Shown here piece by piece: positions 48,470 to 63,411 of a stretch of 64,000 bases of DNA (the stretch's first letter is position 1; each line of letters begins with the position of its first letter). Under the pieces are notes generated by a model. The model searched no databases. It was not told the DNA's origin and saw only the letters and a list, made by a program, of their open reading frames with translations. The DNA comes from Escherichia coli. Its GTDB lineage: Bacteria; Pseudomonadota; Gammaproteobacteria; Enterobacterales; Enterobacteriaceae. The stretch lies in NCBI RefSeq assembly GCF_022846255.1, contig NZ_AP025682.1; one strand, 5' to 3'. Position numbers and translations under genes: made by a program.

Positions 48470-49494
48470 CGTTTTCCCTTATAATTACAGACGCGCACTA
48501 GCTGTGCTGGGTTAGCAATAATCCAACATTTTAATCCTGATTATGTTTATAAAAGCGAACGTTTGCTTAATAACTAACGTAAGTGGACCAGTTCTTCTGA
48601 GTGAACTTAAATGGAGTAGCGATAGTTACTTATAATAACTTTGCCATACAAACGCCATGCTCTTGCATGCTATGTATCTTTATATATTTATCAATCTGAT
48701 ACGAATCGAATAATAACCCTCATCATTAATGCAACTAATCTTATCTATATATCATGTGATATGTTCTGTAACAAGTAAAATCAACATAAAAAATTCAGCA
48801 AAATTTAATATTTGTTCAACTAGCCGTCTCACATATGACATTATTAGTCAACTGCATTTGCCACAAAATGGCTATTTCATGGAACACAGTAATTTCTTAG
48901 TGGCTATTATCATGCTAATGCTTAGGTCCCTAGCGATTATTCCTGCCTGGTTCGTCAGCTTACGCCATGAGATTGTTACATTCCTTTTTCAGACTGTGTA
49001 TTTCCTGGAGATATGGGGGAACGCAGGAGACGCTTTTTCATCTACATTCGTTGGTAAATATGGCTTTGGTCACTGCGACTTAAACCTTCCTCAATCACAG
49101 CTATTCGCCGGGCGATACGGCAAACAAACTATCTGAAACATCATCCTGAAAACACCAACATCTACAAGCCTTTCCAGATCGACTTCAGGGATGACCACTT
49201 ACAAGCCAAAAACCAGGAAACATATTTCATGATGAGAATTATGATCAGCCTGATGGCGGGTAAACACTTATTTTCACCACGCTCACTGAGTTAGCTTGCA
49301 AAGCTTCCCTTGTTTAGACCCTAAATAAATCATTTATAAAACAAATAGTTAAAAGAATGCCTTTAGTTTTTGAAGACCACCTCAAGTGTTCGTCTGGCTT
49401 CACATGGCATCTTCCTCTTAGAAAAAGATCGACATATTTTGTGACACGAATTGCAAATCTCGTTTTGTTGTATGGATTGCGTGATTTTTGATCT

Positions 49495-49509
49495 GGTATA
49501 ACAGGTATA
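49495..49509. promoter_or_regulatory. NanR-type operator: tandem GGTATA repeats (GGTATAACAGGTATA) in the fimB-nanC intergenic region
   Basis: Two exact GGTATA hexamers spaced by 3 nt, followed by a degenerate third (GGTGCA); NanR is known to bind GGTATA repeats controlling nanC and fimB. Confidence 0.55.
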
Positions 49510-49933
49510 AAGGTGCACCGCGATAGTCAATGAGACAGGGCATCTCGCAATCTATGGCAAACATCACTTCAGTTCTTTCTCATCGGGTGATGAAAACGCA
49601 CTTCAGTCTGAAAGGAATATGAAAATGAGATCAACAGACACTCTATTTTATGACTCTGGGTAAAATGGATTGAGTAAGTGATATAGCTTACAAACATTCA
49701 AATCAATTAAACATCAGAAGAGATTTTATACTCAGGTATTTAATCTGGTTCTCTGTTTATTTAAATAATGTGGAAAGAGAATTTTCACAGGAGACCTTAT
49801 ACAAAAAATATAAAATACAGCTACTCGTTGCCAAAGACACTATAAGCCTGGCAAAAAATATTACACAACATAAATGCTAATTGTTTATGCGGGCTTTGTA
49901 TTGCTTTCTGTATCCTACAAATGAGTGAAATAT

Positions 49934-50650
49934 ATGAAAAAGGCTAAAATACTTTCTGGCGCATTATTACTGTGCTTTTCGTCACCACTGATTTCTCAGG
50001 CTGCGACACTGGACGTACGTGGTGGATATCGTAGTGGAAGCCACGCCTATGAGACTCGACTCAAAGTCAGTGAGGGATGGCAAAATGGATGGTGGGCAAG
50101 TATGGAAAGTAATACCTGGAATACCATTCATGATAATAAAAAGGAAAATGCCGCACTCAATGATGTTCAGGTGGAAGTTAATTACGCGATTAAACTTGAT
50201 GATCAATGGACGGTGCGCCCGGGAATGTTAACGCATTTTAGCAGCAACGGCACACGCTACGGACCCTACGTAAAACTGTCCTGGGACGCGACAAAAGATC
50301 TTAATTTTGGCATTCGCTATCGTTACGACTGGAAAGCTTACCGACAACAAGACTTATCCGGTGATATGTCTCGTGATAACGTTCATCGTTGGGATGGATA
50401 TGTCACTTACCATATTAATAGTGATTTCACCTTCGCATGGCAAACGACGCTATACAGCAAACAGAACGATTATCGCTATGCAAACCATAAGAAATGGGCG
50501 ACGGAAAATGCATTTGTTCTACAATACCATATGACGCCCGATATTACGCCATACATAGAATATGACTACCTTGACCGTCAGGGTGTTTACAACGGCAGAG
50601 ATAATTTATCGGAAAACAGTTATCGCATTGGTGTGTCATTTAAACTGTAG
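49934..50650 (+). CDS. nanC: N-acetylneuraminic acid outer-membrane channel (KdgM-family porin)
   Basis: Signal peptide MKKAKILSGALLLCFSSPLISQA and beta-barrel-like sequence; an alternative GTG start at 49925. Confidence 0.9.
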   Translation: MKKAKILSGALLLCFSSPLISQAATLDVRGGYRSGSHAYETRLKVSEGWQNGWWASMESNTWNTIHDNKKENAALNDVQVEVNYAIKLDDQWTVRPGMLTHFSSNGTRYGPYVKLSWDATKDLNFGIRYRYDWKAYRQQDLSGDMSRDNVHRWDGYVTYHINSDFTFAWQTTLYSKQNDYRYANHKKWATENAFVLQYHMTPDITPYIEYDYLDRQGVYNGRDNLSENSYRIGVSFKL

Positions 50651-50669
50651 TAGACAGGAGACAGTCACA

Positions 50670-51776
50670 ATGAATAAAACAATAACAGCGCTTGCTATCC
50701 TAATGGCTTCATTTGCCGCAAACGCGTCTGTATTACCGGAAACTCCTGTGCCATTTAAAAGTGGTACCGGAGTAATTGATAACGACACTGTCTACATTGG
50801 TTTAGGTAGCGCTGGTACGGCATGGTACAAGCTGGATACACAGGCCAAAGATAAAAAATGGACAGCGTTAGCTGCATTCCCTGGCGGACCGAGAGATCAA
50901 GCAACCTCTGCATTTATTGATGGCAATCTGTATGTGTTTGGCGGCATTGGCAAAAACAGCGAGGGCTTGACTCAGGTATTTAATGACGTACACAAATACA
51001 ACCCCAAAACCAATAGCTGGGTTAAATTGATGTCGCACGCGCCGATGGGCATGGCGGGCCATGTGACTTTTGTACACAACGGCAAGGCTTATGTTACTGG
51101 CGGTGTTAACCAGAATATCTTCAATGGCTATTTTGAAGATCTCAACGAAGCTGGAAAAGATTCAACCACTATAGATAAAATCAACGCCCACTATTTTGAC
51201 AAAAAAGCAGAAGATTATTTCTTCAATAAGTTTCTGTTGTCTTTTGATCCCTCTACACAGCAATGGAGTTACGCTGGCGAATCTCCCTGGTACGGAACGG
51301 CTGGTGCGGCGGTTGTGAATAAAGGTGATAAAACCTGGCTTATTAATGGCGAAGCCAAACCAGGATTGCGAACGGATGCCGTATTTGAACTTGATTTCAC
51401 CGGTAATAATTTAAAATGGAATAAGCTTGCTCCCGTCGCATCACCAGATGGCGTCGCTGGCGGTTTTGCAGGCATGAGCAATGACTCACTTATATTTGCC
51501 GGAGGGGCCGGATTCAAAGGTTCACGAGAAAATTACCAGAACGGTAAGAACTATGCGCATGAAGGCCTGAAAAAATCATATAGCGCTGATATTCATCTTT
51601 GGCATAACGGGAAATGGGATAAATCAGGCGAATTATCGCAAGGTCGGGCCTACGGAGTATCATTGCCCTGGAATAATAGTTTATTAATTATTGGCGGTGA
51701 AACTGCAGGCGGCAAAGCGGTGACGGATTCAGTTTTGATTTCTGTGAAGGATAATAAAGTCACAGTACAAAACTAA
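50670..51776 (+). CDS. nanM: N-acetylneuraminate mutarotase (Kelch-repeat beta-propeller)
   Basis: ATG at 50670 with an aggaga SD; signal peptide MNKTITALAILMASFAANA; the track ORF extends upstream to 50562. Confidence 0.9.
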   Translation: MNKTITALAILMASFAANASVLPETPVPFKSGTGVIDNDTVYIGLGSAGTAWYKLDTQAKDKKWTALAAFPGGPRDQATSAFIDGNLYVFGGIGKNSEGLTQVFNDVHKYNPKTNSWVKLMSHAPMGMAGHVTFVHNGKAYVTGGVNQNIFNGYFEDLNEAGKDSTTIDKINAHYFDKKAEDYFFNKFLLSFDPSTQQWSYAGESPWYGTAGAAVVNKGDKTWLINGEAKPGLRTDAVFELDFTGNNLKWNKLAPVASPDGVAGGFAGMSNDSLIFAGGAGFKGSRENYQNGKNYAHEGLKKSYSADIHLWHNGKWDKSGELSQGRAYGVSLPWNNSLLIIGGETAGGKAVTDSVLISVKDNKVTVQN

Positions 51777-51840
51777 CGCTTCAGGGCCCCGGTAAAGGGG
51801 CCCTGCTATCAATTTGTCATTTGTATTACGCGAAAATTAT

Positions 51841-52821
51841 ATGAACGCAATAATATCGCCCGATTATTACTATGTTCTTACCGTTGCTGGTCAGTCTAAT
51901 GCCATGGCGTATGGCGAAGGACTACCATTACCGGACAAGGAAGATGCGCCTCATCCCAGAATTAAACAATTAGCGAGATTTGCGCATACACATCCCGGAG
52001 GCCCGTCATGTCACTTTAACGACATTATTCCACTGACTCACTGCCCACACGATGTTCAGGATATGCAGGGTTATCACCATCCTCTGGCAACGAATCATCA
52101 AACACAGTACGGCACCGTTGGCCAGGCACTGCATATAGCACGGAAATTACTGCCCTTTATTCCTGATAATGCAGGGGTTCTCATCGTTCCGTGTTGCCGT
52201 GGCGGATCGGCTTTTACCGCGGGCAGCGAAGGGACATATTCAGAACGGCACGGAGCCAGCCATGATGCTTGTCGTTGGGGAACGGATACTCCGCTGTACC
52301 AAGATTTAGTCAGCAGAACGCGAGTCGCACTGGCAAAAAATCCGCAGAACAAATTCCTCGGCGTATGCTGGATGCAAGGCGAATTTGACTTAATGACCAG
52401 TGACTACGCGTCACACCCTCAACACTTTAATCATATGGTTGACGCCTTTCGTAGGGATCTAAAACAATACCATTCTCAGCTTAATAAAATTACTGACGCG
52501 CCGTGGTTTTGCGGCGATACCACCTGGTACTGGAAAGAAAATTTCCCTCATGCGTATGAAGCTATTTATGGCAATTATCAAAATAATGTTTTAGCCAATA
52601 TTATTTTCGTCGACTTCCAGCAACAAGGTGCAAGAGGACTGACGAACGCGCCTGATGAAGATCCAGACGATTTAAGCACGGGATATTACGGTTCAGCGTA
52701 CCGGTCACCGGAGAACTGGACGACGGCACTGCGAAGCAGTCATTTCAGCGCGGCAGCCCGTCGGGGGATTATTTCTGACAGGTTTGTAGAAGCAATTTTG
52801 CAGTTTTGGCGCGAAAGGTGA
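51841..52821 (+). CDS. nanS: 9-O-acetyl-N-acetylneuraminate esterase
   Basis: Product begins MNAIISPDYYYVLTVAGQSNAMAYGEG... (SGNH-like esterase motif). Confidence 0.9.
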   Translation: MNAIISPDYYYVLTVAGQSNAMAYGEGLPLPDKEDAPHPRIKQLARFAHTHPGGPSCHFNDIIPLTHCPHDVQDMQGYHHPLATNHQTQYGTVGQALHIARKLLPFIPDNAGVLIVPCCRGGSAFTAGSEGTYSERHGASHDACRWGTDTPLYQDLVSRTRVALAKNPQNKFLGVCWMQGEFDLMTSDYASHPQHFNHMVDAFRRDLKQYHSQLNKITDAPWFCGDTTWYWKENFPHAYEAIYGNYQNNVLANIIFVDFQQQGARGLTNAPDEDPDDLSTGYYGSAYRSPENWTTALRSSHFSAAARRGIISDRFVEAILQFWRER

Positions 52822-52874
52822 GCGTTCATTAATTTGATTTATTCGCATCCATCAACGCTTTTAACTGCTCCGGC

Positions 52875-53626
52875 GTGCGGCACTATAATGGTTTTCACAA
52901 CAAGGAGCCATTTTCTTATACCACTTTCAGAGACCATCCGCTTATGCCACCGCCCTCTACGCAACTGTTTGCAGAGCACCTTCCCACCGAGTGGATACAG
53001 CACCTCCTGACGCTTTCTGCTCATGCGACCATTTGTCGTCTTAACCTGAGCGCGGATGGCGAAGCGGGGATTAGCCTGCTGGCCCGCAGCGCTGTCACCC
53101 AGGAGCGCCAGCGCGTGGGGGCCCCCTGGTGGAATGGCTCTTCCGCCAGACCGCACAGACATGGGGCGCGGAACGTTACCTGAAGGATGACTGGCACGGC
53201 CTGCAACTTTTTGCCATTGATGGCGCACAGTTCAGGACACCTATGAACCTGAGTTGCGCGAATATTATGGCTCTGCCAACACATCCACTGAGCGGCAGAG
53301 CGCCTACCCGGTCATGCGTCTGGTGGCGTTAATGAATCTGGGAATCACATTCTGCTGAATGCCATGACCTCGGCCTACCGGCGGAGCGATACAGCGTGAG
53401 GCAACTAAAGCGGCGTCAGAAATCAGCTTTAAGTTCGCATTCCAGTTTATCGTGACAGAAATGATAGTGCAGGGAAATACGGCGTCACCAGGAACCATCC
53501 CGAAACGGCTGGAGCATCTGCGGGGTGCTCTGGAAGCGGTGTTCCCACGACTATCAAGGCCGAGGGCTGTTAAGGTATCAAAAACCCGTTATCCGGTGAA
53601 ACACAGTGCCGCCCCGCTTAAGTGAC
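52875..53626 (+). mobile_element. Degenerate IS4-family transposase remnant (frameshifted, internally deleted; no intact DDE core)
   Basis: Three frames carry stretches resembling the IS4 transposase N- and C-terminal regions (SAVTQERQRVG; TAQTWG...LQLFAIDGAQFRTP; AYPVMRLVALMNL; AVFPRLSRPRAVKVSKTRYPVK), interrupted by stops. The comparison is from memory of IS4 InsG. Confidence 0.55.
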
Positions 53627-53794
53627 GGCATTGTGTTTCTGACTGGCCTTAACTTTCCCTGAATCTCTGACGATCCTCACCATTGATATTTTCTTCATTC
53701 CTCACCAGAGAAATAAAAAATCACTATACTCATCAAAATATGAGATTACATTTATTCAGGCGATCACCTTACTATTTTATACGGAAAATAAATC

Positions 53795-54445
53795 ATGAAT
53801 ATCCGTCAATCATTACATGACCGAATCTATGCAGAATACCCTCAACAGGCTAAAGATATATTACTGTATTTCCCCACTTATGAAATTATGCCATCGACCA
53901 TAAAAATGGTTATGATTAATGAGGTGGTAGCTATAACACCGCAAGAAGATTTTTATACACCAGAGTCTGGTTATTTTACGACTGTCGCCCGACAGTTAGC
54001 GCTGGCTGGATTATCGGCAAGTAGTGGCGAAGTCTTACTCAACCATGGTATCTACCTGACCTCCGCACTGAAACTACCTAAAACACAGATCACAGCCACA
54101 CCCGCGGAGATCATTCTCTGGTCACCTATTGTAGAATGGGAGCTCGAACTCTTTGCCAATATAAAAGTTATTTTCGTTGGCGGCGATATCGCGCGAAAAT
54201 GCCTTAACATCATCGCGAAAAAGCAAACACGTAAACATGCCATCCCTTCAACTCCGACGTACAAACTGATGAATAGCGAATTAGTCTGGAAAGGAATAAG
54301 CATACTTCCTGGATATATTCTTACCGGAAAAAACCTGCTCATTGAAAAGTCAAAAATCGAAATGAATGTCGAACAATTAAGAAAAGGAATTGCGATTTAT
54401 CGCAATAGTAACAGTAACCATACGAATAATTCAGTTCATGAATAA
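53795..54445 (+). CDS. Hypothetical protein (216 aa) in an AT-rich islet; possible distant uracil-DNA-glycosylase-like fold
   Basis: ATG at 53795; clean 216-codon ORF in a markedly AT-rich segment between the IS4 remnant and the helicase operon. The order of conserved-looking blocks is reminiscent of UDG-superfamily topology but without a canonical GEGPG motif. Confidence 0.5.
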   Translation: MNIRQSLHDRIYAEYPQQAKDILLYFPTYEIMPSTIKMVMINEVVAITPQEDFYTPESGYFTTVARQLALAGLSASSGEVLLNHGIYLTSALKLPKTQITATPAEIILWSPIVEWELELFANIKVIFVGGDIARKCLNIIAKKQTRKHAIPSTPTYKLMNSELVWKGISILPGYILTGKNLLIEKSKIEMNVEQLRKGIAIYRNSNSNHTNNSVHE

Positions 54446-54958
54446 GAGATGAATCATTAATAACAAGAAATCACTGACAAACCACCTGTAAAAGGTCAAT
54501 CATTTTAGTTCAATTTCCTTTGTCATGATTATATTTTTATCGTCCTGACGATACTATTAACAATTACAATATTTATACCCTCCCCTGAACAAACAGAAAA
54601 GAACTCATACATTCGTTTATAATTCTGGTAATCCTGGCATCATACGTTTAAAATTTAAGGTGTTTGTTTTATAATCATGATTCCAAAGACTATTGGTCAC
54701 CAGAAAATGCCAGCCTTTTCGTGCCAGCTATATTTGTCCAGTGTGTTACCCCATCCAAAAATCATCCACATCCTGATGTTACGTTAGATATAGAGAAAAC
54801 AGGTTGTACTGTGCAATATGCTAACCGCATAAGCGAATATAATTTCTAAGCTGATATTGTCTGGCTGTTGGGAGCTAAACAATATAAATATCGCCAGTTG
54901 CCAGAACGGTTATATAGACCAGGAGCGTTTCGGCTCCTGGTCTGTTTCGGACATATTA

Positions 54959-57073
54959 TCAATCAGCCACTAATAGCGGACTAGGGATACCAGATGATGA
55001 AACAAACAGCCCTTTTACGGCACGGGTTGCAGCCACATGCAGTAACGCGCGCTCATTAAATAATGCATCACGCTGTTCAACGGGATCATCGGATGCTAAT
55101 GCTTTTATTTCCGGCACAACGCCTTCGTTAATCCCCACCAGGAACACATACTGGAACTCAAGCCCTTTAATACGGTGCATCGTTGCAACTCGCACGCCTG
55201 GGCGTTCATCGCTGTCACCGCTATCATTGCCTAAATTAAATGTCTCAATTCCGGCGTCATTGAGTGCTGATGCGTAGCGGTCGCAAGCATGTTTAGTACG
55301 CGCAGTAATGCAGATATCCTGAGAACGAACCTGACTCGCCAGCAATGCCTGAATTTGCTTGACGAGTGTTGCAGCCTCTTCTTTGAAATCTGCCGCATGC
55401 GTAATCATGGGCTTTTCCCCGTGCAGTAATGACAAATAATCATTACTGGTATCCGCTTCGCCATCGAGGTTATCAACCTTCACACCAGTTAACAGCCCAA
55501 CAGCAAATTGACGCGTCTCTTCTGTGGTCCGATAGTTAATCTTCAATTTTTTACTGCGACGACCACGGACGTTAATACCACACTGACCAAGAACGACCTT
55601 ATTGCGATAAATACGCTGATGCCCATCCCCGACAATAAACAGATCGTTGGGCGACTCGGGAACCAGGCTGCGAATAAGAGTAAATGCCGGGGCACCGATA
55701 TCTTGAGCTTCATCGACGACAATACTGCTATAAGGTAGTTGGACCTGCTTTTCTTTAAACAGAACAATAGCCTCATGCATGGCATCGCCCATTTCGCGCA
55801 GTTTGGCACGCGCCATTTGTGCTCTGAATTCTTCGAAAACTGGCCAGATTTTCGCCCGTTGAATACGGGATAACGCTGTACCACGTCCAACCCGGCTGAC
55901 TTTGAGGTATTCCTCCCGGGTGTAAACCGCATTTGGCTGGACAACGCGTTGCCACTCTTCAGCATAGAAATTGTCAGGTAGCCCCAGTTCGGCAGGTGCC
56001 TGCTGCAAGGCATAGTTCCAGCATTTACGTCGCCCTTCATCGCTGTCGTATACCACGCGGAAATCATAACCGTGGCGTTTTAGTTGGTCGCTCATCCAGG
56101 CATCAATGTTAACGACGTCAATACGCGCCATCTCTTCTCGCGTACACAACCGCTGGAGATTAGCGCGAATATCTGCCGCCAGGTTACGCGTAAAGGTCGT
56201 GAAAAGTACCTTCTTACCGGGTTTATCTGCCAGACGCTGAGATAACCACCGCGCACGGTGCATTGCAACAACCGTTTTCCCTGTACCTGCACCGCCCAGT
56301 ACTCGTACCGGACCATTAGCGGGCGACTCCACCAGTTTTCGCTGGCTCGGATGCAGAAATACACGCCATTTTTCTAAAGGCGCATTAAGCATCTGCAACA
56401 GCTCCTGTTCATTTTCAACGACATGGAAGCGACGTTTACTTCGTTCAATCGCCTCCATAAAGTCGTTGGTATCAACAGGCTCGTCACGATGATCGTTAAA
56501 CTCTTCCAGCACTTCCTGGTAATCCAGCCCTTCTGCCAGCCAATGCAGGGGTTCCCAGGCTTCTGCTGGCATTATGCTTTCAAGTTGATTAAGCCCGGCT
56601 TCATCGGTAAGCGCCATCACCTGATCAATAAAGACAGGCGGCACACCCAGGGCCAGAATCTGTTCCGCGCTGTAAGCTGCGAAGAGTTTCGGTTTATCTA
56701 GCACCGTTTCCGCCGCCGGTTTGATATAGCTAATATCAATAACCTGAATTGCGCCGGTAACCGGGTGAATTGAACAATCATGCCGCCGCGCCCAGTCGTA
56801 TGCTTCGTCGTGTTTATCCACCCACATCAGCATATACAGGGCACCCTGTTCAGGTTTCAGAACAATGCCGCGATAAGTTTGATCGATTCGCACCGAATGG
56901 ACATTTTTACTGCGCGCATCGTGGATCTTTTCATAGTTAAGTCCATTACTGGTCGGGTCCTGACGGAATTTGGAGATGAATTCCTGCACCTTTTTTTGCT
57001 GTGCTTTTGGGATCCGCGCGAATGCGCCCAGAAAACCATCAGAAAGTGCCACCTTGGGCGTTTGCACCGTCAT
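54959..57073 (-). CDS. UvrD/Rep-family (SF1) helicase, 704 aa, with an uncharacterised ~230-aa N-terminal domain
   Basis: Walker A GGAGTGKT (aa 260-267), motif II IVVDEAQDIG, motif III-like VGDGHQRIYR, C-terminal TMHRIKGLEFQYVFLVG. Its start ATG overlaps the stop of the 2113-aa gene by 4 nt (57070-57073). Confidence 0.8.
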   Translation of the reverse strand: MTVQTPKVALSDGFLGAFARIPKAQQKKVQEFISKFRQDPTSNGLNYEKIHDARSKNVHSVRIDQTYRGIVLKPEQGALYMLMWVDKHDEAYDWARRHDCSIHPVTGAIQVIDISYIKPAAETVLDKPKLFAAYSAEQILALGVPPVFIDQVMALTDEAGLNQLESIMPAEAWEPLHWLAEGLDYQEVLEEFNDHRDEPVDTNDFMEAIERSKRRFHVVENEQELLQMLNAPLEKWRVFLHPSQRKLVESPANGPVRVLGGAGTGKTVVAMHRARWLSQRLADKPGKKVLFTTFTRNLAADIRANLQRLCTREEMARIDVVNIDAWMSDQLKRHGYDFRVVYDSDEGRRKCWNYALQQAPAELGLPDNFYAEEWQRVVQPNAVYTREEYLKVSRVGRGTALSRIQRAKIWPVFEEFRAQMARAKLREMGDAMHEAIVLFKEKQVQLPYSSIVVDEAQDIGAPAFTLIRSLVPESPNDLFIVGDGHQRIYRNKVVLGQCGINVRGRRSKKLKINYRTTEETRQFAVGLLTGVKVDNLDGEADTSNDYLSLLHGEKPMITHAADFKEEAATLVKQIQALLASQVRSQDICITARTKHACDRYASALNDAGIETFNLGNDSGDSDERPGVRVATMHRIKGLEFQYVFLVGINEGVVPEIKALASDDPVEQRDALFNERALLHVAATRAVKGLFVSSSGIPSPLLVAD

Positions 57074-60000
57074 TTGTCACCTCCGGACAGATGTTGCAAT
57101 GTATTTTCGTCAATTGGCCCGAATGCTACGTGCCAACCCCTGGTTGTGAATAATGGAATAAATTCTTGATTATCAATAATCAATGCCCATTTTTGTGATG
57201 GCCAGGCGAGATCGGCTTCCGCAATAATTTCCCCCTCATCATTTTGCAATTCGTAGCCGAGAGTCGGCGCAGAGAGAGAATGAGACTGAAGCAACGCGAT
57301 CTCTTCAGCGCTTAATAAGCCAAACTCAATAATCTCAGCCCAACTCTCATCAGTCTCTGGTACTGCCTCTGGCGTTGCCGAAACTTTAGTGTCAACGCTT
57401 TCCTGCGGTAAATGCACGGCTTTACGGCTGGTAAAGGTTATATCCGGCAGGAACTGTAACAGGTTTACCAGTCGCCAGAAGCCATTGAGTCCCGCTTCAT
57501 AACCGTCATCCTGCGTATAGCGATCGTCAAAACAGATATGCAAACGCAGCCAGCTGCGCATTTGTGCGACACTGGTCGTCGGTTTAATGGCTTGTTGTGG
57601 CAACACCGAAGCCAGCTCAATAAATTGCTGCGATGAGTTACAGCTATCGAGTAAACCACCAAAGACAAACGGTTCGTCTGGCAAAAGCTCTGCTAGCCGC
57701 CAGGCTGGCGCGTTTTCCTGCATTTCATAGGCATACTTTTGTTTCGTTCCCGCGTCCTGTGACTTCTTCACATCCAACCACACCCAGGCATGTGCAGCAG
57801 CCATTTTCTGCCATAACTGCGTTCTTCCTCCCGGATCGGCGAGATAATCCAGCAGCAGTGCAAAACTGTTGCGTTCCCGGAACGACGCTTCAAGGGCCGC
57901 AAAGTTGGTATCGTGAAACAGGTTATAAAACTTAGGCTGTTTCATATCCGGGTTATGCCCAAGCCCCAGGACATCCTGAACATGTTTAAGCCCAGGCTCT
58001 TTGAGATCGGCCCACGTGACTGTCCACACCCAGAAATTATCGCTATCCCGAATCGCCTGGCGTTTTTGCACATCCTCTGCGACGCTATTTTTGTGAAACG
58101 CAAAGCCATCAAGGAAAATAGCTACCGGTTTAATGGCATCAGACTGCATAAGCGGATATAGCACGTAATCCGGGCGACAAGGGATCCCCACCGCCTCTTT
58201 AGCGCCTAAATCCACCTGAGCTTTAAGATGCCAGCTCATCATCGGTTCGCTGCGGGTGTTAATAATCCACCCAGCGCCCTGATGCGCGTAACTGCGACTG
58301 ACAATCAGGTTTTTATTTTCTTGCAGGCAGCTAATAAACCGTTTTTCCAGCTCACTGCCCATCATGGCTTCGAGGGAAATGTTTTTGATGGAATCAATTA
58401 CCCGTATCGAATCTCTTGCCTGCAAAATTTTCGCCAGCAAGAGACGCGCCTGATCGCGGGAGACATACTTCATGCGCCCACGGTCACGGTAAGCGTAAAC
58501 GCAACGATAACAACCATCTTTATGCGTATCATGGTTGCAACTGCATTCCACTATCGCCTGATAGGCCAGTTCAAGTAATTTCAGCAAATTGTCGGGAGTG
58601 CGCATCAGCTCTTTAAGAGAACCAGTTCCCCCCGGGACGGTATCGTAAATCACCAGATACTGCCGCCAGGATTCGCCTTCATTTTCCGGCTCGCGGTACA
58701 CAACGCCTTTCAGGTGATCGACATTCCCCTTGAAGTAATGTTTAAGACCTAGCTGGATCGCCGCCCCAAGAGAAGCCTCCACGACACGGTCATTACTGTA
58801 ACTGCTTACCGGGAGCAGAATACGCAACGCTTCTGACTCCAGCTGGCGATAGAGATAGAGATAATCTTCGAACTTCGCCTTTTCGGGTTCCGTGCGATAT
58901 TTGCAGCTCAAATCATGACGGGGTTCATGATCGCGAGGACGCTGTACCATGCCGCACCCGAGGCAAACTTTAAACCCGGTTCGCTTCTTCGCTTCTCCGG
59001 CAATCATCAACTCATTGGCATCATCCGCCATTTTGCCGAAGTTGATATCCCGCAGGGTGACTTTGCTTAAAAATTCAAAACCAAACGGAACTTCGCCTTC
59101 CTCAATCGCGTATGCCGCCGATACATCTTCTTTTTCGAAACTAACCAATAGCTGACGCTGGAAGAAAGCAGGTTCACGGCTGTCGCTCTCGTCGCTGATC
59201 TGGCTATCACGTGCGCTGGCGCGGGCATACACCTGGCGAAGTTTCAGCAGCGTGGTTTTTTGTCCGGCGTCGGCCCACCCCGGTGTGCCACATTTCGGGC
59301 AATATTTATGCTGGTCGCCCGTCTGGTCGATATTTTCGCTGTAGTTACAGTGGCTACAGATACGCCAGTTCTCCGGCTCAGAGACCTTCAGGTCTATCTG
59401 CTCAATTTCAACTTTATGCCCACCGGCATAGAAATTATTCAGCGGAGCCAGCTCAGCCAGCGCCGTTGATGCCGGGCGTTCATATTCGAAAGTGGTGTTT
59501 TGATATTCACGTGCTTCCCCGCCTTCTTTACGCCGCCAGAGCACAGAACGTAACGTAATACCGGCTTCCGGGAAGGCGTAGTTAGGCAGCAGACCTTCAT
59601 CCGTGAGGAAATTCAGCGTCTGCTTATTGTTGATTTGATTGACCAGCGCCATCAGCGCCTGCCGTTCTGAAGTTAACTCGCGCATATCGCTGTCAAAGTT
59701 TTGATCGCGCGGCGCGTTCTCCAGCTTATCGATACTGCGCTTGAGTTTATCGATGCGTGAACGCAGAGATTTGCGATCTTCCACCAGCAGTTTTAACGCC
59801 TCTTCGATACGCTGCACCAGAGAGCGTTGTCCTGGCGCGCCCTGAAGATAAGACAACAACTGTTGGCGAGTTTCTGCGGCAAGATCGGGGAAGATCGCCG
59901 TAAATTGTGCAGCAATCTCCGCATGATGCTGTTCGATATATCTCAGTAAGTTATACGGAAAACCCGATTTACGCCCGAACTCCAGCTCATCCAGCATCTG

Positions 60001-63000
60001 TTTGACGTTTTTACAGATAGCGGATTCTGGTACACCGGTTTTCACCCAGTTATCCATACAAAAAGCTGCCAGCTGGCGTTCGAGAATAGCCGTTGCATTG
60101 AGGAAGACGCCAGGAGCCTGCACCTGGCCCTGCATCATCTCCAGTGGTTCTTCAAAGAAAAACTGATCGTGCGGGTTCCCTTCTGCCACGGTAATGTTTA
60201 ACGCGTTACCATCTTTACGACCGGCGCGACCAATACGCTGCAAGTAGTTGGCCTGAGCAGGTGGGACAGAACAGAGTAAAACGGTGGAAAGATCCCCAAC
60301 GTCGATACCCATCTCCAGCGTCGGTGTTGCCGACAACAGGTTGATATTCCACGGTTGGTTGCCGCGGTAGAACGATTTTTCGGTGGCTTCGCGATCTTCA
60401 CGGCTAAGCAGCCCCGTGTGTTCTGCGCCCTGCACGCGCGCGATGTCCATGTTCTCCCAACGCCAGGTCGCCGTATTGTCGACTTCCTGGTAACGACCTT
60501 CACAACGTAAAGAGAGACAAGGCGCATTACGCCACTGCCACCCTTGATCGGCCGGAGCCCGGACAACCTCACGGCAACATGAGCAATTAAGCTGAACGAC
60601 GTCACGGCTCACCACCAGCGCCGAAGGCACCAGTCCCCAGGCTTCACGCCCTTTGGTGTCAAAATCTTTTACTACTCCGGCTATTTTCAACGCCGTAAAC
60701 AGGCGTCGTAACACCGTTTCCGCAACGCTACTGATAAACAGATTATTGCCGTTACTCAGCGTGCGATTGATCCAATGCTGATACCAACTGGGGTTAGACT
60801 TCGCGCCAATCAGGCGATGGAAACCATTAATTTTTTCAAACGACGCGTAAGCCGGTTTACGCGTTTTCGGACCGATAGAAGGCATATAGCGCGAGGTACG
60901 CTCTTTTTGCGTCATCATAAAGGTCGTGCCATCACGGCGATAACTTTCGAACGCCGGATGCATAACGGCCCCGGCCTGGCGTTGATACCAGATAACCCCC
61001 AGCGCCAGGTGCGCTACCTGCTCGACGCTCACACCGGACATCTCATCACCCAGCTCTTCACAAAGCTGTTGATGCAGGGCGGTAATTGCCGGATTAAAGC
61101 GATCTTTATCCACTCCAGCAACGGCATAACCGGTGGCTTCCAGCGTACGTCCGATACGCGCGCGCAGGGTGAATTCGCTGTACACCTCCCAGTCGAGGCG
61201 CAGGGAAACCAGCTCCGGCAGATCGGAGTTCTCCGCCAGTTTGCCTTCATTTTTCAGTGTCTGATAATCATTCAGCCACTGCATATTTGGTGCGATGAAG
61301 TTCGCTGCAAAATGAGCATCGTCCGGTGAACGTTCACGCGTTTGTTGGCAAACACGCGCCGCGAACGCATCCAGCGGTAATGTCTCTTTTTCGCCAAGAA
61401 CACTGGCGATTTGCCCACGAATCATCAGCGGCCAGGTTCGGGCAGTAAAAAAGCTGGCACGATGCGCGGCGTCTTGTACCGAGTCAGAAAACGTAATCAG
61501 CTTTTTATGTTCGTTGAACTGGCTGCCATAAAGCTGGTGAATCATCACCGCCGACAGACTGGCAGCCCGTGACCCCAGAATCGAAATCCCCTGTTTGCTG
61601 TTGCAGTACGGGCATTCATTAGCAAACTCCAGCTCGTCCTTACGCTCTTTGAGCATATCTGGGATCAGTACCTGCAACAGCTCTGTATGACCACAATGTC
61701 CACACTGGACGCTGGACTGTCGGTTCAGTTTCAGGCAGGTAGGGCACAGTTTCTGGTGTGCGCCACTGACCGCTTTTTCGTTGTTATCCGGGAAAGCAAG
61801 GACGATGGAGCGCCCTTTTTCAAAGAACTGGCGATAAATGCCGTCGAGGTCTGTTTCCAGCTGAACGCTTTGCCCATGACGCAGGCTGGCCCAGCCGGTT
61901 GCGTGGCAGTCACGGCAGTGGATAACCGGCAAATAGTGTTCGCGATCTTCCACCGCCACATCATCGGCAAACACCAGTCTCGGTGTTTTCGCCACGCTGG
62001 CGACCAGACGACGCATCTCACGAAGCCACAACTGGGAGCGCAGTTGCACAAACGGCAGCACCGGGCGCGCTTTCTTCGCCTGGAGACGTTTTTGCCGATC
62101 GTGGTCCGTTTCCGGTACTTCGAGACGTGCCTGCGCGATCAGCGCCAGAATGCTTTGCAGCACGCGTCGGGCATGGTCGGCGCTTTCTGCCAGCATGACC
62201 TGGAGATTTTCCAGACACTCTCGTTCAGAGAGGATCCCGCCTTGCAGATCATGGAGTAAGACATGCATCACGCTGTGGCGGCGTAACAGTGACCCCAGCG
62301 CAATACGCTTTTCACGCCCGTCGTCGCTCTCCAGATCGTCCGGGAGTTGCAAGTCGCTGTCGGGGAACCACAAAGGGATTTGTCCGTTGAGATACGCCAC
62401 CGGGGTAGCGTAACTCTGCGGGTCCAGGGCCGAAGCGACCTCCGGCCCCGGATACTGACTGTACGCAATGGCGTAATCCTGCAAGTACTCCGCTGCCGTG
62501 TAGCGATCTTCGCGAATAACGGCGTCATCGGTAAACGGCTGGTCAAAGATTGTTTTTGCGTAATCGAGCAGTTGCCCCAGTTCGTCGCCGACGGTCGCTG
62601 ATGTCCCGACGCAGGCGAATCGTTGGTTATCTACACCTATGTGATGCTTCAGACGTCGCACCAGACAGGCCAGATCCGACCCTTGCGCGCCATCAAACGT
62701 ATGCAATTCATCCACGACCAGGTAACGCAATGAACCGGGCTGGTTGTAACGCCAGAGCGGCTGATCGCCAGGGCGCATCAGCAGGTAGTCGAGCATTTTG
62801 TAGTTGGTCAACAGGATGTCCGGCGGGCTTTCGCGCAGCGTGTGCTTACAGGTAATGACCTTTTCTGCCGACATTTTTTTGCTGGGTTCGATTTCGCTGT
62901 CGCCGACAAACAGGCCGACGGTCACCTTGCCATGCAGTTGTGGATCGCTGGCGATGGTTTTGGCGAAACGGCTGGCCTGATCGGTTGCCAGGGCGTTCAT

Positions 63001-63411
63001 CGGGTAGATGATAATCGCTTTAACCCCGGCTTGTGACGCGCCCGCGCAGTGGTTGAGCAGCGGGAACATAAAACATTCTGTTTTACCGGAGCCGGTACCG
63101 GTAGCGACCAGTGTCGGCTGTGGCGCGTCGCTTCCCAGACGCTGAAATGCCCGGGCCTGATGCGCGTGCGGCGGGAACGGCAGCGTCAGATTAGGGAAGA
63201 AATTCAGCGGTAAGTCACTTTTACAAAACGGCAACTGGGCGGAAAGGTATGGTCCTTTCAGCAGCGTTTCAGGCTGGGCCAGAAATTGCTCCAGCATTGA
63301 GACATTATCGTTATTCTCGCCGTTAAACAGCGGGCTGTTTAGCGGGAACGCCGCCCGTAAAAAGGCGGCAACGCTGTCGGCGACCTGCCGACTGACAACG
63401 GATGGCAGCAT
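57070..63411 (-). CDS. Giant (2113 aa) DEAH-box SF2 helicase with Zn-ribbon insertions, DUF1998-like Cys cluster and a Vsr/DUF559-like endonuclease motif; DruE-like (Druantia) candidate
   Basis: Walker A VATGTGSGKT (nt 63079-63105), motif II VVDELH (62701-62718), motif VI QRIGRAGR (60217-60240), several CxxC pairs, CSCNHDTHKDGCYRC cluster (about 58501-58545), and VAIFLDGFAFHK...RQAIRD...VWTVTW (about 58090-58140). Confidence 0.8.
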   Translation of the reverse strand: MLPSVVSRQVADSVAAFLRAAFPLNSPLFNGENNDNVSMLEQFLAQPETLLKGPYLSAQLPFCKSDLPLNFFPNLTLPFPPHAHQARAFQRLGSDAPQPTLVATGTGSGKTECFMFPLLNHCAGASQAGVKAIIIYPMNALATDQASRFAKTIASDPQLHGKVTVGLFVGDSEIEPSKKMSAEKVITCKHTLRESPPDILLTNYKMLDYLLMRPGDQPLWRYNQPGSLRYLVVDELHTFDGAQGSDLACLVRRLKHHIGVDNQRFACVGTSATVGDELGQLLDYAKTIFDQPFTDDAVIREDRYTAAEYLQDYAIAYSQYPGPEVASALDPQSYATPVAYLNGQIPLWFPDSDLQLPDDLESDDGREKRIALGSLLRRHSVMHVLLHDLQGGILSERECLENLQVMLAESADHARRVLQSILALIAQARLEVPETDHDRQKRLQAKKARPVLPFVQLRSQLWLREMRRLVASVAKTPRLVFADDVAVEDREHYLPVIHCRDCHATGWASLRHGQSVQLETDLDGIYRQFFEKGRSIVLAFPDNNEKAVSGAHQKLCPTCLKLNRQSSVQCGHCGHTELLQVLIPDMLKERKDELEFANECPYCNSKQGISILGSRAASLSAVMIHQLYGSQFNEHKKLITFSDSVQDAAHRASFFTARTWPLMIRGQIASVLGEKETLPLDAFAARVCQQTRERSPDDAHFAANFIAPNMQWLNDYQTLKNEGKLAENSDLPELVSLRLDWEVYSEFTLRARIGRTLEATGYAVAGVDKDRFNPAITALHQQLCEELGDEMSGVSVEQVAHLALGVIWYQRQAGAVMHPAFESYRRDGTTFMMTQKERTSRYMPSIGPKTRKPAYASFEKINGFHRLIGAKSNPSWYQHWINRTLSNGNNLFISSVAETVLRRLFTALKIAGVVKDFDTKGREAWGLVPSALVVSRDVVQLNCSCCREVVRAPADQGWQWRNAPCLSLRCEGRYQEVDNTATWRWENMDIARVQGAEHTGLLSREDREATEKSFYRGNQPWNINLLSATPTLEMGIDVGDLSTVLLCSVPPAQANYLQRIGRAGRKDGNALNITVAEGNPHDQFFFEEPLEMMQGQVQAPGVFLNATAILERQLAAFCMDNWVKTGVPESAICKNVKQMLDELEFGRKSGFPYNLLRYIEQHHAEIAAQFTAIFPDLAAETRQQLLSYLQGAPGQRSLVQRIEEALKLLVEDRKSLRSRIDKLKRSIDKLENAPRDQNFDSDMRELTSERQALMALVNQINNKQTLNFLTDEGLLPNYAFPEAGITLRSVLWRRKEGGEAREYQNTTFEYERPASTALAELAPLNNFYAGGHKVEIEQIDLKVSEPENWRICSHCNYSENIDQTGDQHKYCPKCGTPGWADAGQKTTLLKLRQVYARASARDSQISDESDSREPAFFQRQLLVSFEKEDVSAAYAIEEGEVPFGFEFLSKVTLRDINFGKMADDANELMIAGEAKKRTGFKVCLGCGMVQRPRDHEPRHDLSCKYRTEPEKAKFEDYLYLYRQLESEALRILLPVSSYSNDRVVEASLGAAIQLGLKHYFKGNVDHLKGVVYREPENEGESWRQYLVIYDTVPGGTGSLKELMRTPDNLLKLLELAYQAIVECSCNHDTHKDGCYRCVYAYRDRGRMKYVSRDQARLLLAKILQARDSIRVIDSIKNISLEAMMGSELEKRFISCLQENKNLIVSRSYAHQGAGWIINTRSEPMMSWHLKAQVDLGAKEAVGIPCRPDYVLYPLMQSDAIKPVAIFLDGFAFHKNSVAEDVQKRQAIRDSDNFWVWTVTWADLKEPGLKHVQDVLGLGHNPDMKQPKFYNLFHDTNFAALEASFRERNSFALLLDYLADPGGRTQLWQKMAAAHAWVWLDVKKSQDAGTKQKYAYEMQENAPAWRLAELLPDEPFVFGGLLDSCNSSQQFIELASVLPQQAIKPTTSVAQMRSWLRLHICFDDRYTQDDGYEAGLNGFWRLVNLLQFLPDITFTSRKAVHLPQESVDTKVSATPEAVPETDESWAEIIEFGLLSAEEIALLQSHSLSAPTLGYELQNDEGEIIAEADLAWPSQKWALIIDNQEFIPLFTTRGWHVAFGPIDENTLQHLSGGDK

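Follow-up and report, generated by a model that had tools for sequence, protein, structure and literature searches.

Which gene fills the AT-rich gap between nanS and the helicase genes of an Escherichia coli phage-defence island, and does it belong to the defence system beside which it lies? The window, i.e., the whole stretch of 64,000 nucleotides that was analysed (contig NZ_AP025682.1), includes the end, now decayed, of a phage-defence island that was already known, and over the compared stretch its DNA is 99.8% identical to that of strain SMS-3-5 and about 90 other genomes. Behind nanS and a remnant of an insertion sequence (IS) of the IS4 family lies a single open reading frame (ORF) of 216 codons:

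53795-54445, + strand, uracil-DNA glycosylase (UDG) superfamily protein of 216 aa, identical to WP_001026378.1 and UniProt B1LDP1

We describe here the anatomy of this locus, the predicted fold, the family and the distribution of the encoded protein, and its independence from the neighbouring ARMADA type II system. At a probability of roughly 0.6, we infer that the gene codes for a stand-alone cargo glycosylase whose catalysis and specificity are non-classical; catalysis, substrate and biological role belong to this inference. Two unrelated passengers sit at the end of the island, a dead ISCro3-like element and a stand-alone UDG-like gene.

The newer RefSeq name of WP_001026378.1 is ‘uracil-DNA glycosylase family protein,’ and the UniProt entry B1LDP1 is still named ‘uncharacterized.’ The start codon of the ORF is supported by an N-terminus (MNIRQ...) that is conserved with relatives. 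An AlphaFold2 model built from 24 relatives is confident, with a predicted local distance difference test (pLDDT) of 86.2 and a predicted template modelling score (pTM) of 0.86, and displays the α/β UDG fold with its four-stranded parallel β-sheet. The structures nearest to the model come from UDG families 5 and 4 and from UdgX, as seen from the scores of the structural matches:

2d3y, family 5, 15.6
1l9g, family 4, 15.5
6ail, UdgX, 14.7
1wyw, TDG, 12.5
2c2q, MUG, 11.9

In the AlphaFold Database (AFDB), members of the protein’s own clade come first (TM 0.8-0.9), and the nearest named groups after them are the UDGs of Type-4 and Type-5 (TM about 0.6, E about 1e-8). A sequence search of the PDB retrieved only the family-5 enzyme 2d3y, at E=0.18 with the single sequence and at E=0.0014 with a profile. 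The resemblance to the UDG superfamily that an earlier note on this DNA had proposed is borne out by the model, and the protein is predicted to be a UDG-fold member of an uncharacterised clade adjoining families 4, 5, and UdgX.

The same note had called the gene an orphan. This description has to be given up, since no fewer than 263 species genomes encode members of the compact family to which the protein belongs, and it is already listed as a UDG family protein by RefSeq. At 36-48% identity 111 relatives were found, most of them with the Pfam domain PF03167, and the closest relatives, with the same range of identity and a length of 197-206 aa, are encoded by Muribaculaceae, Duncaniella, Parabacteroides, Lachnospiraceae, Oscillospiraceae, and the Enterococcus avium group. 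A relative is encoded in 263 of about 100,000 species genomes, AFDB adds members from C. difficile, Akkermansia, Enterobacillus, and some methanogens, and the only plasmid matches are to Enterococcus megaplasmids. HMMER was run exhaustively against 1.84 billion representatives and identified only 161 clusters (50% identity) at E<=1e-3; none of the representatives is intermediate between 48% and about 90% identity, so that either the donor lineage is unsampled or the E. coli copy diverged fast. A supposed relative of 157 aa with 90% identity (P0002) was rejected, as it is this very locus, taken from a draft assembly in which 1 bp is deleted. The gene is a horizontal acquisition, most likely drawn from the genes that circulate among gut anaerobes, and probably has its own promoter, for which the following region is the presumed place:

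53635-53794, + strand, AT-rich region upstream of the UDG-like gene, 33.8% GC

This region is kept in O157 despite the loss of the ORF. A promoter scan did not find more promoter-like sites than in shuffled sequences (8 versus 5.2 ± 2.0), and no convincing promoter was assigned to the ORF.

Conserved residues of the clade follow each of the four β-strands, i.e., I41-N42-E43-V-V-P46 and D52-F53-Y54 after β1, G85-x-Y87-x-T89-N90-A91-x-K93-x-P95-K96 after β2, G130-D131-x-A133-x-K135 after β3, and P172-S173-Y174-I-x-T177-G178-x-N180-L-L-I-E184-K185-x-K187 after β4. According to the model, these positions would correspond to the loops that form the active site and the DNA-binding face in UDGs. The uracil pocket of TthUDGa consists of E41, G42, E47, F54, N80, and H155, and the catalytic residues are H155 of motif 2 and N89 of motif 3 (PMC5387724). 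Exchange of this histidine in family 4 (H155S) slows the chemical step about 3,000-fold and makes catalysis about 2,500-fold less efficient (PMC5387724, Table 1). The 216-aa protein is 12-19% identical to members of families 4, 5, and UdgX. That it lacks the canonical catalytic motifs, as had been stated from the sequence, is largely correct for the motif-2 His, the motif-3 Asn and the Fe-S cysteines, and also, in the E. coli copy only, for the uracil-contacting Asn (S90), but two features of the pocket are kept. The presumed acidic residue of motif 1 (E43) is E or D in 27 of 27 diverse clade members, and the presumed stacking aromatic residue F53 is kept in the clade. Mapped by strand order, motif 1 reads I-N-E-V-V-A in E. 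coli (with P as its last residue in relatives) compared to GE(A/G)PG, so that the acidic residue is retained and the Gly/Pro spacing differs. In place of the motif-3 Asn, most members have Tyr at position 99 and the E. coli protein has I99, and N90, the equivalent of N80, is kept in 98% of relatives and replaced by Ser in the E. coli copy only. Families 4, 5, and UdgX carry a 4Fe-4S cluster with four Cys ligands. The 216-aa protein possesses one Cys, and the alignments contain no conserved Cys column; the clade should therefore be devoid of an Fe-S cluster.

Mechanistically, the protein would bind DNA, flip a base into its pocket and cut the N-glycosidic bond, acting as a monofunctional glycosylase by analogy of fold, with F53 stacking on the base and E43 shaping the motif-1 loop. 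As the clade is without the motif-2 His and the Fe-S cluster, and as the E. coli copy has Ser for Asn, slow catalysis or a specificity other than uracil would be expected, and not an enzyme of the classical Ung type. Should its function be repair, the protein would found a UDG family of its own, in which catalysis is achieved differently.

Several observations weigh against an active glycosylase. The motifs were mapped solely by one HMMER alignment to family-5 2d3y together with strand order. When the E. coli protein is taken alone, PF03167 matches it weakly (E=0.004, 17.7 bits) and over residues 81-152 only; the precomputed PF03167 matches of its relatives are marked weak in both places where a strength is shown. 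The 216-aa protein had no match in NCBIfam, including the family-4 models TIGR00758 and NF040953, against which relatives reach 16-17 bits at cut-offs of 125 and 250. The position of the motif-2 His, just before P172, is occupied by L in E. coli and by I, M, F or L in relatives. An alignment of 174 relatives has 76 columns with a conservation of 95% or more, and at 18 of them the E. coli protein carries a different residue (P46A, N90S, S173G, R159M, and R169S are among these changes), whereas other members deviate at 12 at most, with a median of 0. These 18 deviations could reflect loss of function instead of a new specificity.

They also speak for a decaying passenger or pseudo-enzyme, a protein that would have kept its fold, lost catalysis, be inert or bind DNA only, and be heading for deletion. 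The E. coli copy has changed more of the conserved positions than any relative, presumed pocket and DNA-contact residues among them, it is without close relatives outside E. coli, a dead IS adjoins it, and the gene has been lost through an ORF-sized deletion in the O157 type and truncated by IS1 in another lineage. This explanation is nevertheless improbable. Besides the confident AlphaFold2 model, many family residues are kept in the E. coli copy, i.e., E43, F53, Y54, K93, K96, D131, K135, and N138, as well as T155, Y156, Y174, T177, N180, E184, K185, and K187. A stretch of any length from 53640-54958 occurs in 544 genomes, and 92 of these 544 keep the ORF intact; these are the 92 genomes with the whole stretch, all of which have both the intact ORF and the junction of nanS and IS relic. 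The protein is identical across strains whose IS relics differ at up to 39 sites, and all three single-nucleotide polymorphisms inside the ORF are synonymous third-position changes, which hints weakly at purifying selection. The residue pattern as such is equally compatible with a dead enzyme and with one that is changed or weakened.

The relationship of the UDG-like gene to its neighbours can be judged from the genes that follow it in the opposite orientation:

54959-57073, - strand, armD, UvrD/GajB-like helicase of ARMADA type II, 704 aa (PADLOC GajB, 2.9e-36)
57070-63411, - strand, armC, YprA/DruE-like helicase of ARMADA type II, 2113 aa (PADLOC DruE3, 4.3e-104)

Beyond the window, a 1640-aa DrmMI/type IIG-like methyltransferase and then a DEAD/DEAH helicase are encoded, and this gene array matches the ARMADA type II operon armABCD, for which gene order and naming are taken from the literature (10.1101/2025.09.22.677730, PMC12458937). 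The earlier note had placed the ORF convergent with a helicase operon; the orientation is right, with the ORF on the + strand and the gene for the 704-aa UvrD-like protein on the - strand, and the helicase genes exist, but their label has to be corrected to the published ARMADA type II system. In SMS-3-5, armABCD is preceded by a gene for a 1119-aa protein and a second large helicase gene, which are the Druantia III pair DruH/DruE according to the published description, and by zorABE. Two preprints from 2025 describe the Zorya-Druantia-ARMADA array as active (10.1101/2025.09.22.677730, on OI-172 of EDL933; PMC12458937), and neither of them mentions a glycosylase.

In O157 Sakai, exactly 661 bp are missing between two imperfect repeats, and one repeat copy and the AT-rich flanks remain:

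53788-53801, no strand, left copy of the imperfect 14-bp repeat, ATAAATCATGAATA, bordering the ORF-sized segment that some strains have and others lack
54449-54462, no strand, right copy of the imperfect 14-bp repeat, ATGAATCATTAATA, with the junction within the shared AATA

Since both flanks persist without the gene, the difference is best read as a deletion in the O157 type and not as an insertion here. The Sakai island shares the nanS junction, the IS relic, armD, and armC with the window (97.6% identity over 54449-56458, which spans the spacer and the first 1.5 kb of armD), and differs in lacking the 661 bp with the UDG-like ORF and in its non-coding DNA, which is 6-8% apart. A second kind of loss is seen in strain Res13 (L007 2299-6000), where an island next to tRNA-Phe and integrase genes carries the ARMADA operon together with the spacer and only the final 165 bp of the ORF; an IS1 cuts the ORF at 54281, and two IS1 copies removed everything upstream. 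The arrangement in Res13 indicates that the gene travelled with the island.

With only 92 of 544 genomes keeping the ORF intact, the gene is dispensable. The four-gene ARMADA II cloned from an O157 strain is fully active, and ARMADA II is active in native O157 strains too (10.1101/2025.09.22.677730, PMC12458937); the UDG-like gene is therefore accessory cargo and stands outside ARMADA. That ARMADA type II has in it a fifth, accessory part, which might for example process DNA for the helicases, could be argued for from the position of the gene directly next to armD and from the co-transfer of armD-proximal DNA. However, the gene is convergent and not co-transcribed with the operon, it is not conserved with armABCD, being absent from O157 Sakai and from islands of the NCTC 12900 type, where four genes suffice, and a glycosylase is mentioned in neither preprint, so that such a part in ARMADA is highly improbable.

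Still less probable is a phage-derived factor for anti-defence or abortive infection, a role that had been proposed from the sequence and for which only the AT-rich foreign composition speaks. No homologue was found by tblastn in 50,697 phage records, neither the protein nor two of its relatives matched a PHROGs family, none of the abortive-infection or other families of PADLOC-DB v2 matched the protein at E<=0.01, and relatives are chromosomal or located on Enterococcus megaplasmids; the proposal is not upheld. Even taken together, a role as ARMADA accessory or as anti-defence or abortive-infection factor has only a very small chance of being correct.

A weightier possibility, although still an unlikely one, is a single-gene antiphage glycosylase in the manner of Brig1, Brig2, and Brig3, which would excise a modified phage base and generate abasic sites that block replication. 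The Brig proteins are proven stand-alone defences of the UDG superfamily against base-modified phages and are often encoded in AT-rich islands. Brig1 and the 216-aa protein share the UDG fold, a single-gene organisation and an AT-rich defence island as location, and family-4 UDGs such as Sulfolobus 4ZBY are among the best structural matches of both. The gene lies inside a defence island and directly beside armD, its 3′ part and the armD-proximal spacer move with ARMADA in the tRNA-Phe island, and the E. coli copy has lost the Asn that reads the base. Against hypermodified Tevenvirinae, the three systems of the array all fail to protect (10.1101/2025.09.22.677730), which would leave room for such an activity. 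The resemblance to Brig1 is nevertheless one of fold, size and location only. Homology to Brig1 was not detected (hhalign probability 0.05, BLASTP E=3.6, with a Brig1 sequence that was machine-read from a supplement PDF and may contain small errors), motif 1 of Brig1 is of the G-L-N-P-G type, unlike that of the 216-aa protein, and PADLOC gave no match. Similarity to E. coli MUG is likewise not detected (hhalign probability 0.1); the catalytic Asn of the G-I-N-P-G motif in MUG/TDG has its equivalent in N42, which is unconserved in the wider clade (N, S, L, A, D, T, H or G). Furthermore, the gene has been lost from most genomes that bear the island, and location by itself says little about function.

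The genomic contexts of the relatives bear on the same alternative. When all ORFs within 6 kb were clustered for 80 loci, the only frequent neighbour was a gene for a 305-aa HTH_11-WYL-WCX regulator, located directly upstream on the same strand in 23 of the 80 loci, with a gap of -35 to +25 nt to the UDG-like gene and in several families of Clostridia (e.g., L015, L024, L033, L043, L051, L063, L067, L079, and L082). Downstream of the pair, a Mef-like major facilitator superfamily (MFS) pump (13 loci) and a large serine recombinase (7 loci) are encoded, and upstream there are many small ORFs. These cassettes are near-identical across different genera and look like cargo of mobile elements; they may constitute a mobile DNA-stress or genotoxin-response unit. 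The frequent status as mobile-element cargo next to a WYL regulator would suit a defence gene, as this class is known from defence systems. WYL regulators occur, however, both in defence systems (BrxR, CapW) and in damage responses sensing single-stranded DNA (DriD, PafBC), and the pairing therefore points to DNA stress without distinguishing repair from defence. Other relatives adjoin genes for thymidine phosphorylase, RNase HII, dipicolinate synthase or a methyltransferase, and relatives mostly lie near thymidine phosphorylase, RNase HII, sporulation or metabolic genes and efflux pumps. No recurrent link to known defence genes was seen in the examined loci, and relatives of the 216-aa protein, in contrast to the Brig proteins, are not enriched in defence loci. 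In AFDB, the UDG-like model can be aligned along 176 residues (TM 0.78) with A0A1E3A3W6 of Eisenbergiella tayi, a protein of 388 aa named ‘HTH domain protein.’ This entry may represent a fusion of regulator and glycosylase, or else two genes that were merged in the annotation.

A cargo glycosylase of non-classical catalysis thus remains the preferred reading. Gut Clostridia, Enterococcus, and Bacteroidales commonly encode members of its clade, in many cases in an operon with a WYL regulator gene on mobile elements, and one divergent copy lies at the very end of an island that ranks among the most potent in E. coli defence. A bolder version is unlikely: the protein, perhaps along with WYL-coupled relatives from mobile elements of gut Clostridia, would represent a new Fe-S-free and His-less UDG clade that excises non-canonical bases from DNA that is foreign or damaged, and in E. 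coli would provide the Zorya-Druantia-ARMADA island with a fourth, stand-alone antiphage module. If true, this module would target base-modified phages beyond the reach of the three helicase/motor systems. Excision of modified phage bases would add a glycosylase layer to an island so far studied as three systems, and could explain differences between strains in their sensitivity to modified phages.

The first passenger at the end of the island is the IS relic:

52876-53634, + strand, ISCro3-like relic of the IS4 family, both ends kept, two internal deletions, reading frame destroyed

In four BLASTN pieces of 87-94% identity, the relic aligns to an intact element of 1390 bp (L004 401-1790) that is present on many E. 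coli plasmids. Both termini are retained, position 52876 of the window corresponding to 401 and position 53634 to 1790 of the element record, and the segments 575-667 (93 bp) and 1024-1549 (526 bp), i.e., 619 bp or about 45% of the interior, are deleted. The intact element encodes a 445-aa protein (L004 443-1777) that scores 263 bits (E=3.1e-78) against the IS4 family transposase model NF033592, for which the cut-off is 115, and the wreck of an IS4-family transposase that had been recognised from the sequence is confirmed by this match. The name ISCro3 derives from the homologous piece in Sakai, which is annotated as ‘ISCro3 Family: IS4 partial’; the label given by the Prokaryotic Genome Annotation Pipeline (PGAP) is ‘transposase, frameshifted.’ In comparison to intact ISCro3/IS4 elements, the relic, with its interior deletions, its broken frame and stop codons in all frames, is a fossil. 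It is dead, can no longer transpose, and has no function. Judged from nucleotide differences, it is also old, because it differs from its Sakai counterpart at 58 of 759 positions, which matches the 6-8% of other non-coding DNA here, versus 1.1% for armD.

The relic and the UDG-like gene lie beyond a junction that is formed by the following features:

51841-52821, + strand, nanS, intact, 326 aa, the final core gene ahead of the island (ORF list)
52740-52829, - strand, YthB-like small ORF, 29 aa, antisense to the 3′ end of nanS, RefSeq WP_374758120.1
52825-52875, no strand, 51-bp flank, not present in K-12 and adjoining nanS in many other E. coli

The genes nanC, nanM, and nanS are all on the + strand, and NanS is identical to K-12 NanS at 317 of 327 alignment positions, stop included. 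BLASTN homology to K-12 MG1655 covers 49003-52824 at 97.4% and ends 3 bp past the nanS stop codon, and in the Sakai record the feature ‘phage-like element SpLE6’ begins 3 bp after nanS, so an island boundary directly after nanS, as claimed in the earlier note, is well placed. The strongly AT-rich, foreign stretch described there is present as well: GC contents are 0.338 for 53635-53794, 0.401 for the ORF, and 0.361 for 54446-54958, in contrast to 0.484 for nanS, 0.485 for the whole window, and 0.500 for armD, and values return to 0.50-0.53 in the convergent genes. The IS relic has a GC content of 0.559. An island in the context of leuX, also suggested earlier, is only indirectly in line with the data, in that the same junction sits in SpLE6 of Sakai, which we take to be sited at leuX; neither the window nor the examined stretch of SMS-3-5 showed a tRNA gene, and a search for a tRNA-derived att repeat at the boundary revealed no tRNA-like 3′ end at 52822-52876. 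In the many other E. coli that possess the 51-bp flank, an HNH endonuclease gene comes next; the matches to query positions 1-52 have 96-98% identity there. On the whole, the junction is an ordinary one that is already annotated in public genomes, as SpLE6/OI-172, ‘ISCro3 partial,’ and ‘UDG family protein.’

Two minor observations concern genes at this border. The start codon of the YthB-like ORF lies beyond the breakpoint of K-12 homology, and its N-terminus reads MNAHL... compared to MNKLPAHL... for K-12 YthB; the 5′ end of the small protein comes from whichever island adjoins nanS. PGAP calls nanS of the SMS-3-5 type (L001 13142-14122; L088 46654-47220) ‘sialate O-acetylesterase, incomplete, missing C-terminus,’ which looks like an annotation artefact, the ORF being full length with 326 aa.

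Between the convergent stop codons of the UDG-like gene and armD, two further features are found:

54446-54958, no strand, AT-rich spacer between the convergent stop codons, 36.1% GC, which travels with armD
54917-54942, no strand, perfect hairpin with a 10-bp stem, GACCAGGAGC/GCTCCTGGTC, 17-42 nt past the armD stop codon

The spacer differs from that of Sakai at 32 of 513 bp and armD at 17 of 1500 bp, from which the spacer appears to evolve at about the neutral rate. Spacer and armD occur together also in a second island, beside a tRNA-Phe gene. For 54906-54960, RNAfold predicts -26.5 kcal/mol, and the hairpin is likely a transcription terminator separating the convergent genes, which a terminator scan overlooked because it has no long T run. 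An Rfam scan of 52700-55100 returned only a eukaryotic snoRNA model (E=0.1), which is below the gathering score and due to chance, and a repeat search found only short chance repeats and the hairpin of the IS end. The best σ70-like match of the region is located at 54647-54675 on the + strand (TTTAAA, 17 nt, TATAAT, 10 of 12 positions); it faces the 3′ end of armD and lies ahead of a 61-codon ORF (54664-54849, + strand). This ORF and the promoter-like site were considered as functional elements and rejected, the spacer diverging at the rate of the dead IS; the neutral rate is the reason why no function is assigned to the 61-aa ORF.

In the comparison to Sakai (L006), the non-coding DNA between nanS and armD (52876-53794 and 54446-54958) is 6-8% different, versus 1.1% for armD, so that the architecture of the junction may be either old relative to the split of the lineages or have a separate recombination history. 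In SMS-3-5, outside the window, a second and degenerate copy of the 5′ part of nanM (94%) is fused to the 3′ end of nanS (L088 13421-14105), and the nanS 3′ end with its 51-bp flank is 77% identical in this copy, which sits between an HNH endonuclease gene and zorE. The block consisting of Zorya, Druantia, ARMADA, the UDG-like gene and the IS relic is therefore bracketed by repeats derived from nanM/nanS, which suggests that it may have entered an older island by recombination, carrying nanS-flanking DNA along.

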